A stretch of DNA of 64,000 bases from Craspedostauros australis (Eukaryota), in assembly GCA_030167865.1 (NCBI GenBank), contig JALAGF010000066.1, positions 1 to 64,000 on the forward strand. The letters run 5' to 3'. The notes beneath the pieces are model-generated. The model was not told the DNA's origin. It was given only the letters and a program-made list of their open reading frames with translations, and searched no databases. Shown one piece after another: positions 55,372-64,000 of the stretch (position 1 is the stretch's first letter; each line of letters begins with the position of its first letter). Both the position numbers and the translations under genes were made by a program.

Positions 55372-56430
55372 GGTTGGATGGGACGGATGCGTATGGCCGA
55401 CAGTATAGTTTGTACGAGTGCGCGTGTACTGGTATGCACGTGCGGTGTTGCGCTGTGCTCCACCTGGTTTCGCTTTGGATCTGTCCCGATGAGTGCTTCA
55501 ATTGGACACGTAGAATAGAGAAGTGCAGTATAGTACTCAATGCCTAATCGTACCCACTCGTACCTAATCGCACCCACTCGGACAACGCAGTATATTCGAT
55601 ACTTCACAAGCGCTTGCACACCATCAGCGATCACGGCTCGACCCCTCTGTGTTGTTTGTCTTCGGAATGGAAGCAGCGCACTTCTGTAATTCTCAGTGTT
55701 TGCGACGGATGATTCAGATGAAAGAAAAGAAGGAATTGTTCGTCTGGTGGTTGTGAGCTAAACCGTGGGCGATTGTTATGTTCGTGTGATTTCTCGCTCT
55801 GCGGCCTGTGTTTGTCCTCGTAGAAAATGTGCGTGTGCGGGTGCGTGTGCGCGTTGTTGTCGTTGTTGTCGGTGTCGATTTGGCTGTTTGAATTGGCGCG
55901 TTGATCTTTTGGCGCGAAATTTTGCGATACAGTCGATCTAGTCGTAGTTCTCGAAACGTGAGGTGGAGTGAAATTTGTCGCATTCTGGTTTGTCCGTGTT
56001 GAGGCGCGCCCGTAGTATGATGAGATGAGACTAGATTATACGATCTGGCTTGATTCCGAAGCTCTTCTCCGTCATGGATCTATCAGCACAAATCACGAAG
56101 ACGTTCGAGTTACATCGTTTGTACTCATAGTACTGTAGCATGACAATAATTGGCGTCTATGTATAATACCATACTCTCAAGTATTCTACTGGTGTGCGTG
56201 GCCAACGTTGTCATCCTTGGGACGCCGACACCAGGGACCTCAACGAAGAGAACACCAACAGCAGATCCGAAAGAATGGATCATTTGTGTTCTGTGCCGCC
56301 CCCTCCCCTCAGCCATCGGCACTCATGACAGCACCAACAATCGACCCGGAGATCTCACAACGTCGCAAGGGGTGATTCGGTGTGACAGACACCGACAAAT
56401 ACCAACAGCTACGAACAGATACGAACATTG

Positions 56431-57535
56431 ATGGGTCTTCCTCATCCTTCAACAAGTGCCTTCGTCCTCATTCTGCTCGCCATCAGTTGCTACCCCCAAG
56501 CAGCCAGATCCAGGCAATTCCCACGAGCTCACCACCGACAGCACCAGCAGCACTATCACAAGGTGATTCCGACACGCCATCTTTCGCAATCCTTCCGTCT
56601 ATCGTCCAAATACAAGGCGGCATTTTCGTGCATCTTCTCCGGCTGGATCGGCAACTCCAAACCAATGAAGCGCGACAGCCCGTCGGCGCAACGCAACAAG
56701 CAGGTTGTGTGGGATGTGATCCAGAGCAAGATCCAACCGGCATCGTCCACAAAGGGACCATACCGAGTGCTGGAGATCGCTGCAGGCTCTGGCGTTCACA
56801 CCAGCTTCTTCGCAACGCAGCTGTCGCAGCAGACGAAGCAACCATTCTTGTGGTTCCCTACGGACGCAGATGCAGATATGATGTCATCACTGGAGGCATA
56901 TCGTCAGGAATTGGAGACGGATTGCGTGCAGCAACCGATGGTGCTGACATTGAACAAGGATGGAATTGTGGAGGCAGAGACAATTGCAACGGTCTTTCCG
57001 GATTCTGCAACTGTGGATCTCATCATTTGCATCAATATGATCCACATTTCTCCATGGGAGGCAACGCAAGGGCTGATGAAGTTGGCTGGCGAACGGTTGT
57101 CGCCGGGTGGCCATCTGTACTGCTATGGGCCATACAAGGTTGGCGGGACGGCTGTGGAGTCCAATTTGTAAGTTTACACCACCATCGAACGGAGATTGTG
57201 ATGTTGCGCACAAACACTACTCTCTTGTGCTACTGTTGAGATGTCTATGCCGATGGCTTTGGGATGCTGTACATGCTCTCACCATGCATCATGCCGTTCT
57301 TCCTTTCCATTTGCTCACCATGCGTACATATCCACTACCCACGTATGTACGGGCGCTGTTTCATTCTTGCAGACGATTTGATGCCAGCTTGAAGTCGCGC
57401 AACGCTGCCTGGGGCGTTAGAGATTTGGAGACGGTGCTGGAGACTGCCGAAAGCAACGGATTGCGGATGGTGGAAAAGGTTGAAATGCCAGCCAACAATC
57501 TAAGCCTCATCTACACGCCAGCGAAGAAGGGATGA
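56431..57535 (+). CDS. METTL26: METTL26/DUF938 SAM-dependent methyltransferase-like protein; 2 exons (56431-57167, 57373-57535)
   Basis: SPSAQRNK, VLEIAAGSGVH, CINMIHISPW, YGPY, SNLRFDASLKSRNAAWGVRD, EMPANN. Phase-2 intron TT|gtaagt...tgcag|A. The start could be the later MKRDSPS. Confidence 0.9.
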
Positions 57536-57716
57536 CGCCCGTTCCATGCAACAAGTACCCGCGCGCACGCACACAAGTCAGTCAGTAAAGCACAGTAGCG
57601 TTCGTGATGTTGGCTTACGGTTACATTTTTGCTTTTGCTCTAATAGTATGCACCTTGCTTCAGATAGCCATTTCGGATAACTGCACTCCTTCGAATCACG
57701 GGTAGCAGCAAACGCT

Positions 57717-60479
57717 TTAGAATGCTCCCATGGCCTTGGCGGCGATGGCAACCGCGGCAACGCCGACAGCGACGTACGGTGCACCGATGCGAGAGAAGTA
57801 GATCAGGACGCTGGTCTCGCCGATGCTGTCGACCATGTAGGCGCATCGCCAGGTTCCACCGTGGAAGCCTCCTGACGAGAAGAGCTGGTTGGGGTTGCTG
57901 AGCTTGTTCTTTGGATTGCCACCGCTCTTTGGATCGCTCAAATCGGCAAACAGAATGGCAGACATGACAGCGTTGGAGGTCTCCGGTGCGAAGATCTCGT
58001 AGGGCTTGAAGTACGGCATACCCTCGTAGGCCCATGCGAATGTGCGGTTTTGGACGACGGACTTGGTGGATGTCGATGGAGCAATGTTGGATGACACGAT
58101 GCATCCCTTGCTGTTGGCGATGATGGCTCTCCAGTGTTGCAGACGCTTGGCGAGGATGTAGTTTGGACCCTGCGCGACGCTGACGCCGTCGACGATGTAG
58201 TACTCTGTGCTCTTGGTCTTGTCGGCGACTGGTTTTCTCATATTCTTGCGCAAAAACTTGCCCTGGCTCAACAGATTCATGAAGATGCCTGTAGATTCGA
58301 GTTTGAGTACAAGAAATTGGTGAAATGGAGGAAATCAAATGCGTCATCGTGACACAGGGTTAGTGGGTGGGTGGCGAGGAGCGTGCAAGAGTTCAGACCC
58401 ATCGTGATCCGACGTGCTGAGCCATGCAATCATTGGGGACGACCAACGCATCCATAGTGACATCGATGGTGATATCGCCACAGTCAACTGCAATCGCAAT
58501 ATCAATATCGCATTCACCCCGATCATGCAATCAATCATCGCAGAAATGGAGCGCATTGAGGAACTTACAGAAGAGACGCTTGGAGTAGTCGCTGTAGTTG
58601 GCGTTGGAGGCATCGTAGGCCTCCTTGGGGACCAGGTGGAGATCGGTGGGTGTGCAGAGGTAGGCGAGGCTGGTGCCTGGTCTCTTTTCGCTCAGGTCGC
58701 GTGTGATGGCATCCATGGCCAAGGAGACCTGGACGTGGAGGGCGCCGTTGAGGTAGGCGTAGCTGCCCACGCAGAAAGACTTGCCGGTGTACAAATCCAT
58801 CAACCAGTCGCGGATCATGGGTGTGTGGGTGAAGAGGTTGCACCCGGCGTTGGCGTAAAGCAGCTCGTCGGTGGTGCATTTGGACTGTTCGATCTTCAGT
58901 GGGAAAGTCATAGTACCGGTAGACTTCTTGGCGAGGGTGATGAGACGTTCCCAGATACCGGAACGGTCCAAATCGATAGCAATGACGTTGGCTCCCATGG
59001 CGAGGAGGACATGGAGAGGTCCCATGGCCGAACCAGCTCCAAGCAGAACGAAGTACTTGTCGGAAAGGTCGCACCACTTGCCGTTGTCGACGCAGCCGGT
59101 GATGGCAGCTCCAGCACTTGGCTCGATGGTTCCGTAATCAACCCATTCCTTGACCTGCTTTTTGAGTGCGTCGCCCTTGAGGATGGATCCCTTGTACGGA
59201 ATCTCCAACTCTGACGTCTTCTTGGTGCCTTCACCCTTGACGATGCCGGTGTGGAACTTGGTGGAACTGCGGGATGCCATGGCCTTCTCCAAACTGACGG
59301 AGGATCCATCCGGTGCAACAAACTCGAACAACTCGTACGCCTTGTCGATTCCGGCCTGCGCGATTTTGAGCGCATCCTCTGGCGAGTTGCACTGCTCCTC
59401 GACCAAACCGATGAGGTGCTTGACGTAGGTGAAACGGTATCCTTTCGCGTTGCGGATCTTGTCGGCCTTGTCTGGGTTGACGGCGCCGACGGCCGCAGCC
59501 AAGATTTCCTTGTTGACTGGTGTGGAGGATCGGGTTCCCTTGGCCTCGTCGTCGATTGGGAAGGAGATTCCTCTAGGTGGCGGGGGTGGTCTGGCGAAAC
59601 GCTTCTTGAAGGCGCTCTTGCGATTGCCGACCATGTTCATGATCATGAATGGCGAACCGAAGAAGTAGACGACAGGCAAGAGGGTGGCGTAGACGAAGGA
59701 GGCAGCAGCTTCGCCGAAGAACTCATGGAAGACTGGGTCCTTGGCGGCTGCGAAGAAGACGGAGAGCTCTCCCGTGATGCCGGTCGGGTAAAGCACGGCG
59801 AAGAGAGAGTAGCGAAGCCAGAAGAGGGCGTACGGTGTCTTCTTCGTGGCATCTCCAGTGACGATGGCGGTGGCGTAGAACATGTAGCGGAAGACCTCGA
59901 CGAGCGCCCAGGAAATGATCATGACCCCAGCTCCCCATTGGTCTGCGAATTGAATGTTTGCGTGTGCGTTTGTGCGAACGGAAAGGGCGAAATGCATGAG
60001 TAGAAGACGGGTTGGGTGAGCGTTTTTTAGTCATGACCATCATTATGATTGACAGAGCAATGCAAACAGCAAGGCAAAGACCATCCAGCACCAGCGAAGA
60101 GAACAGCAATGCATGTGAATACTGCAATCATGGCACTCCAGTTGCAATTGCAACAGACGCCCAACTCACTTTGGGCCATGGGAGACTTGACGATGGCAAT
60201 GAGCGCAACGATGCGCGATCCGACCTGCATGGCAGTGACGAGGACGGGGGATCGGACCAAGCCCACTCCTGCATGGAGGATCTCGAGCAAAGCGATGGAT
60301 TGCGACCATGTGAGCAAGGTATCGACATTGTCAACTTGGTAGACGTTGGCCAATGCATCGATCACGCCGACCTCTGGAACTGCCACTGCCAGCGATTGCA
60401 GGGAGAGCAGGAGGACCGAGGTCCATCCGAGGCAGGCGCCCAGGTTGTAAAGGATGAGGTAGATCTCTTTCGGGCCCAT
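57717..60479 (-). CDS. Very-long-chain 3-hydroxyacyl-CoA dehydratase (HACD/PTPLA/Phs1 family) fused to a ~500-aa uncharacterised Rossmann-like domain; 3 exons (60479-60170, 59942-58569, 58288-57717), ~751 aa
   Basis: YLILYN, LEILHAGVGLVRS, QVGSR, SWALVEVFRYMFY and WLRYSLFAVLYPTGITGE (catalytic Y/E motif). The same exon runs on into FVLLGAGSAMGP...GANVIAIDL. Both introns are phase-1 GT-AG. Confidence 0.88.
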
Positions 60480-61200: not shown

Positions 61201-64000
61201 ATGAGATCGCTGGTCATCTTGCTGGTGCTGGCCGTGACCTCCAGCGTGGGGATGGCGGTGGACCAATCCAAGTTCCGCACCTGCGATCAGACCTCCTTCT
61301 GCCGTCGCCACCGCAACCAGAAGTCGCAGGTGCTCTACGACTACGCGGTGGATGCGGACAGCGTCAAGTTCCACCTCCCGTCGCAGTACGCCGAGCTCAT
61401 GGAGGAGGTGCGCGAGAAGGAGAAGGCGGCCGCCAAAGAGCAGAGCGGCGACAACGGAGGCGGCGTCTGGCAATCCCTGCAGAATCGCATCATGGGCGGA
61501 TCCAAGGATGACGACGAGGACGGTGCCAAAGACCCCTACGTGCAAGGACCGCCGCCGACTCTGACTGCCGTCCTGCGCAATGCGGCGCTGGAGACGTCGA
61601 CCGGATCCAAGCATGAGCATCTCGAGTGGTCGGTGCATGCCATGTCGGATGGATTGGTGCGCATGCGCATCACGGAGCCCTACCGATCGGGCGCCAATCC
61701 CTACCGCAAAGCCCGCGTCACGTACGATGAGCTGGTGCTGTCCACGGACACCATGACGTCTGCCGAGCATGCCAAATGGATGCCACCGGGCGACGATCAG
61801 ATCAAGCACCTCGTCGGTGCTGACAAGGTGGACAACTACATGGCATTGCAGTACGGTGACGAGGAGAATGCTCCAGGGATGCTGCTTCTTGTGCGGCTCA
61901 AGCCCTTCGCTGCCTCCCTGTACAGAGAGGCGGACATGGCGGCAGGACCCATCGTGTCGGTAGGGGAAAAGGAGATGTTCCATTTCGAGATCCGTCGGTT
62001 GAAGGACAGTGATGCCGAGACGAATGACGCCCAGGACAATGAAGCCAACGAAGGTGAGGGCCAGGGCGACAACAAAGATCCCGACACTCCGGAAAAGGAG
62101 ATCGTGGGGTACTGGGAGGATGGTCTTGCCATCTACGCGGATGGTACCAGGGAAGAGCGCAAGGTGGACAAGGAGGAGGATGATCATCGCAAGCTGACGC
62201 AGGACTCCAACCAGCGCGACACGGCGGGCATGTGGGAGGAGTCATTCCAGAGCCACCCCGATTCCAAGCCAAATGGCCCCATGAGCGTGGGCATGGACAT
62301 CGCATTCCCTGGTTCCAAACACCTCTTCGGTCTCCCGGAGCATGCCTCCTCCACCAAGCTCAAGACCACGACCGAGGGAGGCGGGGAGTACGGCGATCCA
62401 TACCGCCTGTACAACCTGGATGTGTTCGAGTACGACCTCGATGTCCCGATGGCGCTTTACGGTGCCGTTCCGCTCATCGTCAGCCAAAGCATGGCGACCG
62501 GCACTGCCGGTGCATTCTGGTTCAATCCGTCCGAAACCTTCGTGGACATCATGGACGACCAAGATATCGACGGGCAGACTTCGCACTGGATCAGCGAGAG
62601 CGGAGTCGTGGACTTGTTCCTCATCCCTGGACCGTCACCGGCCGATGTTTATCGCCAGTACGCGAAGCTCACTGGAACCATGCCGCTGCCACCGATGTTC
62701 AGCCTGGGTTATCACCAGTGCAGATGGAACTACAAGGACGAACCAGATGTGTATCACGTGCATGGGCAGTTCGAGAAGCTGGATTACCCGTACGACGTCT
62801 TGTGGCTGGATATCGAGCACACGGACGGCAAACGGTACTTCACATGGGACAAGAACGTCTTCCCCCACCCGAAGGAGATGCAGGAGAAGCTCTGGTCTCA
62901 GGGCCGTCGCATGGTCACCATCATCGACCCGCACGTCAAGCGCGACAACCACTACTACATTCACAAGGAAGCGACCGCGAAGGGCCTGTACATCAAGGAA
63001 GCAGATGGCACGACCGACTTTGATGGCTGGTGCTGGCCTGGTTCGTCGTCGTACTTGGACTTCACGGCCTCGCACGTTCGTTCCTGGTGGGCCGATCAGT
63101 TTGCGTATGACCGGTACGAGGCATCCACGCCGTCTCTGTTCACATGGAACGACATGAACGAGTTCAGCGTCTTCAACGGACCAGAAGTGACGGCGAAGAA
63201 AGACCTCCGCAACTTGCGCGGCGACGAACACCGCGAGTGGCACAACCTGTACGGCATGCTCTTCCACAGATCAACAGGAGAAGGGCAGATTCGGCGCAGC
63301 GATGACACAGCGCGTCCATTCGTGTTGAGCCGATCCTTCTTCGCCGGCAGCCAAAAGTACGGTGCCATTTGGACCGGCGACAATGCGGCGGAGTGGTCGC
63401 ATCTTGAAATCGCATCGCCAATGCTTCTCAGCCTTAACGTCGGATCGTTGTCCTTCGTCGGGGCCGATGTCGGAGGCTTCTTCGGTAACACCGATGCAGA
63501 GCTCATGACGCGATGGATGCAGGCTGGTGCCTACACACCCTTCTTCCGCGGCCACGCTCACCACGATGCCAAGCGTCGGGAACCGTGGATGTTCGGACAA
63601 GAGACCATGGTCCGACTTCGCAAGGCCGCCATGGCGCGCTACGCCTTGCTCCCGTTCTGGTACACCATCTTCTACGAGGCGGGCGTCACAGGCATGCCGG
63701 TGATGAGAACCATGTGGATGCAATATCCCAAGACGGAGGTGCTGTTCGGCACTGACGATCAATATCTCGTCGGATCAGATTTGCTGGTGAAGCCTGTCAC
63801 TGCACCCAGCGTGGTAGAAACCACCGTCAAGTTCCCCAACGATGACAGATGGTACGACGCGGAAAGCTTTGCGCTGATTGCCTCCGGCAAGGGAAAGAAG
63901 CATGGCGTCACGGAGATCACTGTCCCAAGCGACATCAACACCATTCCGGTCTTCCAGCGCGGAGGTTCCATCATCGCTCGCAAGCTGTGGCTCCGCAGAA
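61201..64000 (+). CDS. GANAB: Glucosidase II alpha subunit (GH31), truncated by the window end
   Basis: Signal peptide MRSLVILLVLAVTSSVGMA, VDQSKFRTCDQTSFCRRHR, PYRLYNLDVFEY, LGYHQCRWNY, WLDIEHTDGKRYFTWD, catalytic WNDMNE, WTGDN, GADVGGF. No stop within the window, so it is absent from the ORF track. Confidence 0.95.
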   Translation, partial: MRSLVILLVLAVTSSVGMAVDQSKFRTCDQTSFCRRHRNQKSQVLYDYAVDADSVKFHLPSQYAELMEEVREKEKAAAKEQSGDNGGGVWQSLQNRIMGGSKDDDEDGAKDPYVQGPPPTLTAVLRNAALETSTGSKHEHLEWSVHAMSDGLVRMRITEPYRSGANPYRKARVTYDELVLSTDTMTSAEHAKWMPPGDDQIKHLVGADKVDNYMALQYGDEENAPGMLLLVRLKPFAASLYREADMAAGPIVSVGEKEMFHFEIRRLKDSDAETNDAQDNEANEGEGQGDNKDPDTPEKEIVGYWEDGLAIYADGTREERKVDKEEDDHRKLTQDSNQRDTAGMWEESFQSHPDSKPNGPMSVGMDIAFPGSKHLFGLPEHASSTKLKTTTEGGGEYGDPYRLYNLDVFEYDLDVPMALYGAVPLIVSQSMATGTAGAFWFNPSETFVDIMDDQDIDGQTSHWISESGVVDLFLIPGPSPADVYRQYAKLTGTMPLPPMFSLGYHQCRWNYKDEPDVYHVHGQFEKLDYPYDVLWLDIEHTDGKRYFTWDKNVFPHPKEMQEKLWSQGRRMVTIIDPHVKRDNHYYIHKEATAKGLYIKEADGTTDFDGWCWPGSSSYLDFTASHVRSWWADQFAYDRYEASTPSLFTWNDMNEFSVFNGPEVTAKKDLRNLRGDEHREWHNLYGMLFHRSTGEGQIRRSDDTARPFVLSRSFFAGSQKYGAIWTGDNAAEWSHLEIASPMLLSLNVGSLSFVGADVGGFFGNTDAELMTRWMQAGAYTPFFRGHAHHDAKRREPWMFGQETMVRLRKAAMARYALLPFWYTIFYEAGVTGMPVMRTMWMQYPKTEVLFGTDDQYLVGSDLLVKPVTAPSVVETTVKFPNDDRWYDAESFALIASGKGKKHGVTEITVPSDINTIPVFQRGGSIIARKLWLRR

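Follow-up and report, generated by a model that had tools for sequence, protein, structure and literature searches.

In the diatom Craspedostauros australis, a membrane-bound 3-hydroxyacyl-CoA dehydratase (HACD) is joined in one polypeptide to a second domain, called X here. The gene, HACD-X, lies on the minus strand at 60479..57717 of a 64,000-nucleotide stretch of genomic DNA (contig JALAGF010000066.1, positions 1 to 64,000; hereafter the window) and encodes a protein of 751 amino acids in three exons. Judged by its modelled structure, X is a member of the short-chain dehydrogenase/reductase (SDR) superfamily of the classical type. This relation is visible only in structure and motifs, and X belongs to no characterised family. 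The unrecognised SDR family and the bifunctional architecture are new; the parts come from the known superfamilies PTPLA and SDR and involve no new principle. It is tentatively proposed, at somewhat less than an even chance, that X catalyses the step adjacent to that of HACD, the interconversion of 3-oxoacyl-CoA and (3R)-3-hydroxyacyl-CoA, which would make the protein a bifunctional membrane enzyme.

The dehydratase half comprises the N-terminal 216 residues, a full-length match to the family of HACD1–4, Phs1 and PAS2 (PF04387, PTPLA). The profile was matched at positions 1–40 in exon 1 (43.3 bits, cut-off 27) and at positions 48–161 in exon 2 (81.3 bits, cut-off 27; 59937..59605, minus strand), both exons together spanning positions 1–161 of 162. 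Known members are stand-alone proteins of roughly 220–290 amino acids with six helices and a Tyr...Glu pair in the fifth. HACD-X differs from them in that its sixth helix runs on into an oxidoreductase domain of ~530 amino acids and a seventh hydrophobic helix. A 2026 cryo-EM study of the HACD–TECR complex describes HACD as six transmembrane helices with a central cavity open to the cytosol, the catalytic Tyr and Glu being placed seven residues apart in the fifth transmembrane helix, TM5 (Y142/E149 in CeHACD, Y176/E183 in HsHACD2 and Y149/E156 in Phs1; PMC13464631). The same spacing and TM5 position were found for Y155/E162 of the window protein ('YPTGITGE', within the exon 2 match), and the equivalents of this pair were invariant in all 51 full-length fusion proteins aligned. 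In the AlphaFold model of P0019, a stand-in 76.5% identical to the window protein, six long helices lie within residues 3–215 and the Tyr/Glu pair sits in the fifth of them; hydropathy peaks of the window protein itself match only some of the six HACD helices. The full-length P0019 model reached a pTM of 0.76, a score that comes with no error map and so does not fix the arrangement of the domains. Because the PTPLA match is full, the Tyr/Glu pair invariant and the modelled helices six with the pair in the fifth, the predicted dehydratase half looks catalytically competent. Since the number of helices is even, both ends of HACD would lie on the same side of the membrane, and X would be placed on the cytosolic face, where the HACD cavity opens.

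X itself comprises ~500 amino acids after a PPPPP linker (residues 222–226; 59589..59575, minus strand, exon 2). Neither Pfam nor NCBIfam gave a match to X in the window pieces, and Pfam gave none at E ≤ 1 in any of 76 X homologues (0/76), models such as adh_short, adh_short_C2 and KR included. Only chance matches (E ≥ 0.15) were returned by an hmmsearch of the PDB with a diatom-only profile. With a wider family profile, 18 weak matches were obtained. SDRs account for 14 of them, each alignment falling on the Gly-rich motif and strand 2, and HMMER aligned the Gly-rich motif of X with the TGxxxGxG of these 14 SDR chains. For structure comparison, a C-domain-only fragment (P0056, 76.8% identical to the window protein) was folded as a stand-in from a 76-sequence alignment, giving a model with a pLDDT of 95.4 and a pTM of 0.93. 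It consists of a mostly helical N-terminal subdomain (~25–190), an alpha/beta core (~190–510) and a long C-terminal helix (517–548). On the minus strand of the window, the helical subdomain is encoded at 59574..59089 and the SDR core at 59088..58569 (first half, exon 2) and 58288..57840 (second half, exon 3), followed by a hydrophobic C-terminal helix by Kyte–Doolittle hydropathy (residues 722–751; 57809..57720).

When the P0056 model was compared by VIA-align with 48,161 representative PDB chains, its core was superposed on dozens of whole classical SDRs, with Z scores of 16–17 and root-mean-square deviations (rmsd) of 2.5–3.1 Å over 213–242 of ~250 residues. The top and also longest match was the alpha chain of yeast fatty acid synthase (FAS), 2uv8_A, which contains a ketoreductase (Z 17.8, 315 residues, model 133–549, rmsd 5.3 Å). 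Alignments extending past the core were likewise obtained with mycobacterial FAS (4v8l_D, Z 16.7), a polyketide ketoreductase (4hxy, model 51–519) and the ketoreductase of a nonribosomal peptide synthetase (6ulw, model 29–512). With the same model, the twelve leading Foldseek matches were fungal FAS alpha chains (E 1.3e-4 to 7.2e-4), SDRs coming next; the full-length model matched no HACD structure, and none of its matches reached E ≤ 0.001. Since less than 1 unit of Z separates these scores, the fold does not name an SDR subfamily for X. The ketoreductase region (KR) of fungal and mycobacterial type I FAS reduces a 3-oxoacyl thioester and is, like X, an enlarged SDR, yet the two share only 9–12% identity at an rmsd of 5–6 Å, and the top score stays within 1 Z of ordinary SDRs. 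For a homology closer than the SDR superfamily, the modelled comparison offers nothing beyond the top Z and the longest alignment. FAS KR is moreover part of a megasynthase and works on acyl carrier protein, whereas X is free-standing or fused to HACD and its carrier would be CoA.

Conserved positions of X were counted in 76 sequences and then in 117 domain sequences, and are given in the numbering of the window protein. The stretch VLLGAGSAMGP...GANVIAIDL forms strand 1, a helix and strand 2 in the P0056 model. Its Gly-rich motif, GAGSAMGP (G405-AGSAM-G411-P412; 59040..59017, minus strand), begins with a Gly in 117/117, and the end of strand 2 (D427; 58974..58972) is acidic in 95/117 (Asp in 94, Glu in 1). 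Y500 is kept in 115/117 and D514, in the helix after strand 4, in 114/117. A Thr or Ser stands at the end of strand 5 in 116/117 (T534 of 'TPTD'; 58653..58651); owing to an insertion it precedes Y605 by ~70 residues, compared with ~13 between the Ser and Tyr of classical SDRs. The Y-x3-K motif (58160..58146, exon 3) is found at the start of the helix preceding strand 6 (model helix 398–420), with Y605 in 117/117 and K609 in 115/117. It is followed after strand 6 by N629-I-A-P632-x3-T636-x-S638, encoded in the second half of the core, with the Pro kept in 113/117, the Thr in 116/117 (a Ser in the other) and the Ser in 117/117. The order of the Y-x3-K helix, strand and Pro motif is that of ordinary SDRs, and the spacing from Lys to Pro is 23 residues in X versus 26 in the ordinary SDR alignment. 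Near-invariance of these catalytic and cofactor positions across eukaryotes and bacteria argues for X as an active enzyme, as predicted from sequence. A Ser/Thr together with Y-x3-K is the signature of carbonyl/alcohol oxidoreductases, and in classical SDRs NAD(H), not NADP(H), is the cofactor expected where strand 2 ends in an Asp; the strand-2 Asp of X thus suggests NAD(H) as its cofactor.

The open reading frame starts with ATG at 60479 and ends with TAA at 57719..57717, and the joined coding sequence of 2256 nt is translated into 751 amino acids with 0 internal stops. Exon 1 (60479..60170) encodes residues 1–103 and the first base of codon 104, covering the TM1–TM3 region of HACD and the start of the PTPLA match. 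Intron 1 (60169..59943, 227 nt, GTGAGT...CGCAG) has a junction consistent with the P0019 alignment and, together with the 5' half of the gene, is without read support. Exon 2 (59942..58569) contains the rest of HACD, the linker, the helical subdomain of X and the first half of the SDR core, and runs without a break from the final two thirds of HACD through the PPPPP linker to the first 333 amino acids of X. Intron 2 (58568..58289, 280 nt, GTAAGT...CTACAG) lies inside the SDR domain. It is removed in a 1814-nt contig of the public run X1, which is 100% identical and joins 58287|58568 with 280 bases skipped; the RNA nature of this run is only a guess, and it covers only 57600–58656, the 3' end of the gene. 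Exon 3 (58288..57717) supplies the second half of the SDR core, the C-terminal helix and the stop.

The window protein aligned with the 746-aa P0019 of Cylindrotheca closterium at 76.5% identity over 733 apparently ungapped columns, both junctions being consistent. Across the exon 2 part, the top database matches are ~80% identical and come from Bacillariaceae-type diatoms. A search with the exon 2 part of the C-domain recovered 640 homologues, ~750-aa fusion proteins among them, and complete MMETSP transcripts of 747–766 aa from other diatoms encode both HACD and X; for these reasons, a chance open reading frame is ruled out. The preliminary description of the window had placed at 57717..60479 a complete HACD domain continuing with no intron or stop into an uncharacterised Rossmann-like domain. 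The gene is real and on the minus strand, its dehydratase domain is complete with its Tyr...Glu pair kept (Y155/E162), and relatives carry HACD and X on one MMETSP transcript. The dinucleotide-binding beta-alpha-beta motif (G405–P412, D427) and the hydrophobic C-terminal tail noted there were likewise recovered, the Rossmann-type NAD(P) oxidoreductase agrees with the SDR fold of the stand-in (Z ~17), and the remark that no characterised family was recognised is matched by the Pfam result (0/76 members) and the lack of an NCBIfam match. The claim of continuity holds through the linker and the first 333 amino acids of X; the 280-nt intron 2, which interrupts the domain beyond that point, was not mentioned there.

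When a profile of the C-domain was searched against 1.84 billion cluster representatives (50% identity), 2206 of them matched at E ≤ 1e-3, of which 624 also passed E ≤ 1e-30. The architecture figures refer to the best 150 of the 2206: 84 are complete stand-alone forms of ~490–580 aa, X is preceded by over 150 residues in 21 (HACD-X) and followed by over 150 in 10 (X-HACD), and 35 are fragments. Pfam applied to 40 listed representatives longer than 600 aa revealed PTPLA in 36, in both domain orders. HACD-X is the order of the diatom-like forms, and the reverse order, X-HACD, was found in ten (P0129, P0142, P0143, P0145, P0150, P0153, P0170, P0184, P0192 and P0204). In the sequence of P0129, the C-terminal helix of X leads directly into the first HACD helix, a layout that would fit a cytosolic X entering the membrane at its C-terminus. 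The approximately unbiased (AU) test did not reject a tree in which all ten X-HACD rows group together (p-AU 0.585), and on that result several independent origins of this order are not claimed. Because a single X-HACD origin is not rejected, only two arrangements are claimed here, and not a number of fusion events.

HACD-X occurs in Cylindrotheca, Seminavis, Nitzschia, Ditylum, Odontella, Epithemia and other diatoms. Outside the diatoms it is found in bolidophytes (Triparma), the haptophyte Prymnesium parvum, the chlorarachniophyte Amorphochlora amoebiformis, the choanoflagellate Salpingoeca urceolata and the dinoflagellate Polarella glacialis; the named carrier of X-HACD is a dinoflagellate transcriptome. 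In the Polarella glacialis protein (P0219, 1381 aa), a polycystin-channel domain (PF08016) accompanies PTPLA and X, and a merged gene model is possible. Stand-alone X is present in Carpediemonas membranifera, Diaphanoeca grandis, Artemidia motanka and Amorphochlora, which thus has both forms. Matches of stand-alone length without a Pfam domain, their completeness unchecked, come from Vannella, Stereomyxa, Ectocarpus fasciculatus, Tetraparma gracilis (partial) and Quaeritorhiza haematococci. The protein of the latter, a chytrid-like fungus (P0498, 538 aa), bears the NCBI name 'PASTICCINO 2' dehydratase, yet its precomputed Pfam annotation lists no PTPLA and its only match is to X; the name has probably been transferred from fused relatives.

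Ends resembling a type 1 peroxisomal targeting signal (PTS1), of the pattern [SAPC][KRH][LM] (SKL, SRL, AKL, ARL and so on), are carried by 18 of the 84 complete stand-alone representatives, against a rough chance expectation of 0.25. In Amorphochlora amoebiformis, the HACD-X protein P0147 (788 aa) coexists with the stand-alone P0395, whose 90%-identity representative P0251 ends in -SRL, which suggests two compartment-specific paralogues. X is also widespread in Actinomycetota, including Frankiales, Janibacter, Modestobacter, Geodermatophilus, Actinoplanes, Micromonospora and Dactylosporangium. When a pattern derived from a nine-sequence actinobacterial alignment was searched, 577 of its 597 matches encoded a relative. 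A metagenomic query of actinobacterial type (P0238) gave 5214 matches, and all source-given names among the 120 listed are 'hypothetical protein'. In a quick maximum-likelihood tree of 117 X domains, one side of 42 rows holds 15 of the 18 PTS1 forms and 14 of the 18 actinobacteria-like forms. The other side (75 rows) holds all 33 fused forms and stand-alone forms with hydrophobic tails, many of whose metagenomic 'stand-alone' rows may be partial gene calls.

The strongest functional clue is that fusion to HACD recurs in either order and among distantly related lineages, which points to a step sharing the substrate or product of HACD. The N-terminal part would act as a six-helix very-long-chain (3R)-3-hydroxyacyl-CoA dehydratase (HACD/PTPLA). 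After the sixth helix, the Pro-rich linker would lead into a cytosolic X, made of the helical subdomain and the SDR core, and the C-terminal hydrophobic helix would return to the membrane. X would act as an NAD(P)(H) oxidoreductase on the C3 carbonyl or hydroxyl of HACD's acyl-CoA intermediates, so that one protein would carry out two consecutive steps around 3-hydroxyacyl-CoA. Run forward, these would be steps 2 and 3 of elongation; run backward, hydration followed by dehydrogenation, as in peroxisomal multifunctional enzyme 2 (MFE-2). Which substrate X takes, in which direction and with which cofactor is inferred, as are its placement in the cytosol and the location at the endoplasmic reticulum (ER). 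Interconversion of the 3-oxo and 3-hydroxy forms is favoured because the motif pattern is of the carbonyl-oxidoreductase type. The putative PTS1-like stand-alone paralogues, which cluster with the actinobacterial forms in the tree, would indicate a lipid-catabolic setting and are counted in favour of this interconversion.

Among known enzymes, the ER 3-ketoacyl-CoA reductase (KAR/HSD17B12/Ifa38) catalyses the reaction proposed for X. It is an ER-anchored SDR-type protein with Y-x3-K and a cytosolic catalytic domain. X is unlike it in having no adh_short or KR Pfam match, in being twice as long, in carrying an Asp that predicts NAD(H) and in being covalently joined to HACD, whereas KAR associates with ELOVL in animals (PMC13464631).

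A number of observations weigh against the proposed interconversion. X has no sequence-level match to any SDR Pfam family (0/76 members), and when the X family was aligned by hhalign with nine ordinary actinobacterial SDRs, only the N-terminal Gly-rich motif and strand 2 aligned, at a probability of 13%. T534, Y605 and K609 are assigned to the SDR active site of the model by secondary-structure order and motif spacing, and not by superposition. The NAD(H)-type Asp is unexpected in a biosynthetic ketoacyl-CoA reductase. The fold matches do not separate reactions: SDR enoyl- and dienoyl-CoA reductases score like ketoreductases, as seen for peroxisomal 2,4-dienoyl-CoA reductase (4fc6, VIA-align Z 17.0, 242 residues) and for peroxisomal trans-2-enoyl-CoA reductase (1yxm, fourth in Foldseek with the full-length model, E 0.014). 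In animals, HACD forms sub-complexes with the enoyl reductase TECR, its physical partner, and KAR with ELOVL (PMC13464631). KCR, HACD and TER are named in a figure legend of a transcriptome study on Nitzschia laevis, so there is no sign of a pathway gap that the fusion would fill.

Bacterial neighbourhoods of X give no functional hint either, since no conserved neighbour was found in 54 loci of at least 15 kb (of 80 kept). An ordinary SDR forms the most populated cluster of neighbours, with 10 of the 54 loci, and the 45 loci with a called X reading frame have only 23 same-strand neighbours within 200 nt, of unrelated functions. A 5-locus cluster places a gene of the nitronate monooxygenase/FabK type (PF03060) directly upstream of X on the same strand, with a gap of 11–33 nt. 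All four loci checked with Pfam are from Janibacter (L017:7036-7968, L029:6679-7968, L054:6680-7969 and L080:6815-7969). The FMN enoyl reductase of fungal FAS also belongs to PF03060, and this adjacency, confined to one genus, could hint at a reductase pair.

Of the other explanations, one that is rather doubtful but deserves weight holds that X is an SDR acting on another membrane-surface substrate, such as 3-ketosphinganine, a sterol 3-ketone or a fatty aldehyde/alcohol, the fusion to HACD serving co-location in an ER complex and not consecutive chemistry. The fold and motifs indicate only a carbonyl/alcohol oxidoreductase, and the large helical subdomain before the SDR core has no assigned role. 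Moreover, X is also present in Actinomycetota, which have no HACD, and peroxisome-type stand-alone forms exist; the ancestral substrate would therefore be independent of HACD. Two fusion orders in at least six protist lineages are, however, a classic sign of consecutive or coupled steps, and elongation, peroxisomal beta-oxidation and actinobacterial lipid metabolism all proceed through acyl-CoA intermediates.

It is unlikely that X is a soluble SDR-type trans-2-enoyl-CoA reductase taking the HACD product, which would unite steps 3 and 4 in one polypeptide and was named first in the preliminary description. HACD is joined to X in both orders, and PMC13464631 documents the HACD–TECR pairing in a solved animal complex. 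The structural matches include 4fc6 and 1yxm, and many stand-alone forms of X look peroxisomal, like PECR. PECR and 2,4-dienoyl-CoA reductase (DECR) indeed share with X an SDR fold, act on enoyl-CoA and are targeted by PTS1. The motifs speak otherwise: X keeps the canonical Y-x3-K and the upstream Thr/Ser of carbonyl reductases and is ~250 aa longer, whereas the DECR/PECR group lacks the canonical Tyr. Tyr and Lys are also spaced by more than three residues in FabI and FabL (Y-x6-K) and further still in FabV/TER, unlike in X. The strand-2 Asp, acidic in 95/117, speaks against NADPH, the cofactor of known enoyl-CoA reductases. TECR/Tsc13 is a polytopic six-helix membrane reductase (PMC13464631), while X, as modelled, is a Rossmann domain of the alpha/beta type that ends in a single hydrophobic helix, and TER is listed in the figure legend of the diatom transcriptome paper.

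An oxidative, MFE-2-like role is a serious possibility because of the predicted NAD(H), the peroxisome-type paralogues and the actinobacterial distribution. In its full form, this role would make X a new family of NAD-dependent (3R)-3-hydroxyacyl-CoA dehydrogenases of protist peroxisomes and Actinomycetota, and the HACD fusion a membrane analogue of MFE-2 running from enoyl-CoA through 3-hydroxyacyl-CoA to 3-oxoacyl-CoA; so complete a version is improbable. MFE-2 (D-bifunctional protein) combines a hydratase forming (3R)-hydroxyacyl-CoA and an NAD-dependent SDR dehydrogenase in one polypeptide. HACD-X resembles it in pairing a (de)hydratase with an SDR, and many stand-alone X end in a PTS1-like signal. 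The hydratase of MFE-2, however, has a soluble hot-dog fold and is not a PTPLA protein, its SDR domain is an ordinary adh_short member, and no sequence relation between MFE-2 and X was found. A role without catalysis, with X serving the elongase as a scaffold or regulatory module derived from an SDR, is very hard to believe: its divergence from all SDR Pfam models is extreme, but the Tyr (117/117), Lys (115/117), Thr/Ser (116/117) and first Gly (117/117) are kept in eukaryotes and bacteria alike.

For the functional part of the preliminary description, which had proposed a non-canonical enoyl-CoA or ketoacyl reductase channelling the dehydratase product, the outcome was mixed. Under the SDR rule on Y-x3-K, the keto/hydroxy alternative is favoured and the enoyl reductase disfavoured. 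The strand-2 Asp suggests NAD(H) in place of NADPH, which leaves oxidation and reduction equally possible as directions. Of the FabV/TER and SDR folds named there as supporting similarities, it is the classical SDR fold, with Y-x3-K, that the model shows; the FabV structure 4bkr reached a Foldseek probability of only 0.35 with the full-length model. The fusion is not specific to diatoms, since at least six protist lineages carry it and the two domains occur in either order, and a link to the synthesis of polyunsaturated fatty acids (PUFA) in diatoms is unsupported by the present analysis.

HACD-X is flanked in the window by two genes on the plus strand. The convergent neighbour (56386–57535) encodes a DUF938 protein (PF06080; 122 bits, residues 96–257 of the first reading-frame piece). 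The X1 contig that spans intron 2 extends 1037 nt past 57600 into this gene, the convergent 3' ends having been assembled together. The divergent neighbour (61201–63999, truncated by the window end) encodes a large GH31 alpha-glucosidase resembling glucosidase II alpha (360 bits), with a Gal_mutarotas_2 domain, a Glyco_hydro_31 TIM barrel and a C-terminal domain.

No description of the HACD-X fusion or of the X family was found in full-text searches of the literature, subscription-only papers being outside their scope. Matches to 'PTPLA' in a 2026 stramenopile lipid review proved to be the unrelated string PtPLA, and this review names no elongase reductases or dehydratase. In public records, the ~750-aa proteins are named after their HACD third only or are called 'hypothetical'; the 'HACD' annotation on such algal proteins thus covers only one third of the protein.

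The four-enzyme elongation cycle of the ER is treated as universal and as the work of separate proteins. Here, HACD shares one covalent chain with an oxidoreductase to which no family database gives a name. The pairing recurs, in both orders, among stramenopiles, haptophytes, rhizarians, alveolates and choanoflagellates, the organisms responsible for most of the long-chain PUFA produced in the sea. As a ketoacyl-CoA reductase, X would represent a second, non-homologous answer for step 2 of elongation, and the fusion would be a natural channelled enzyme for lipid engineering. If X is oxidative, the protein would be a new chain-shortening module, with which diatoms, haptophytes, dinoflagellates and choanoflagellates could shorten or retroconvert very-long-chain (poly)unsaturated acyl-CoAs at the ER. 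Either way, a testable function would be provided for thousands of 'hypothetical proteins' in Actinomycetota and protists.

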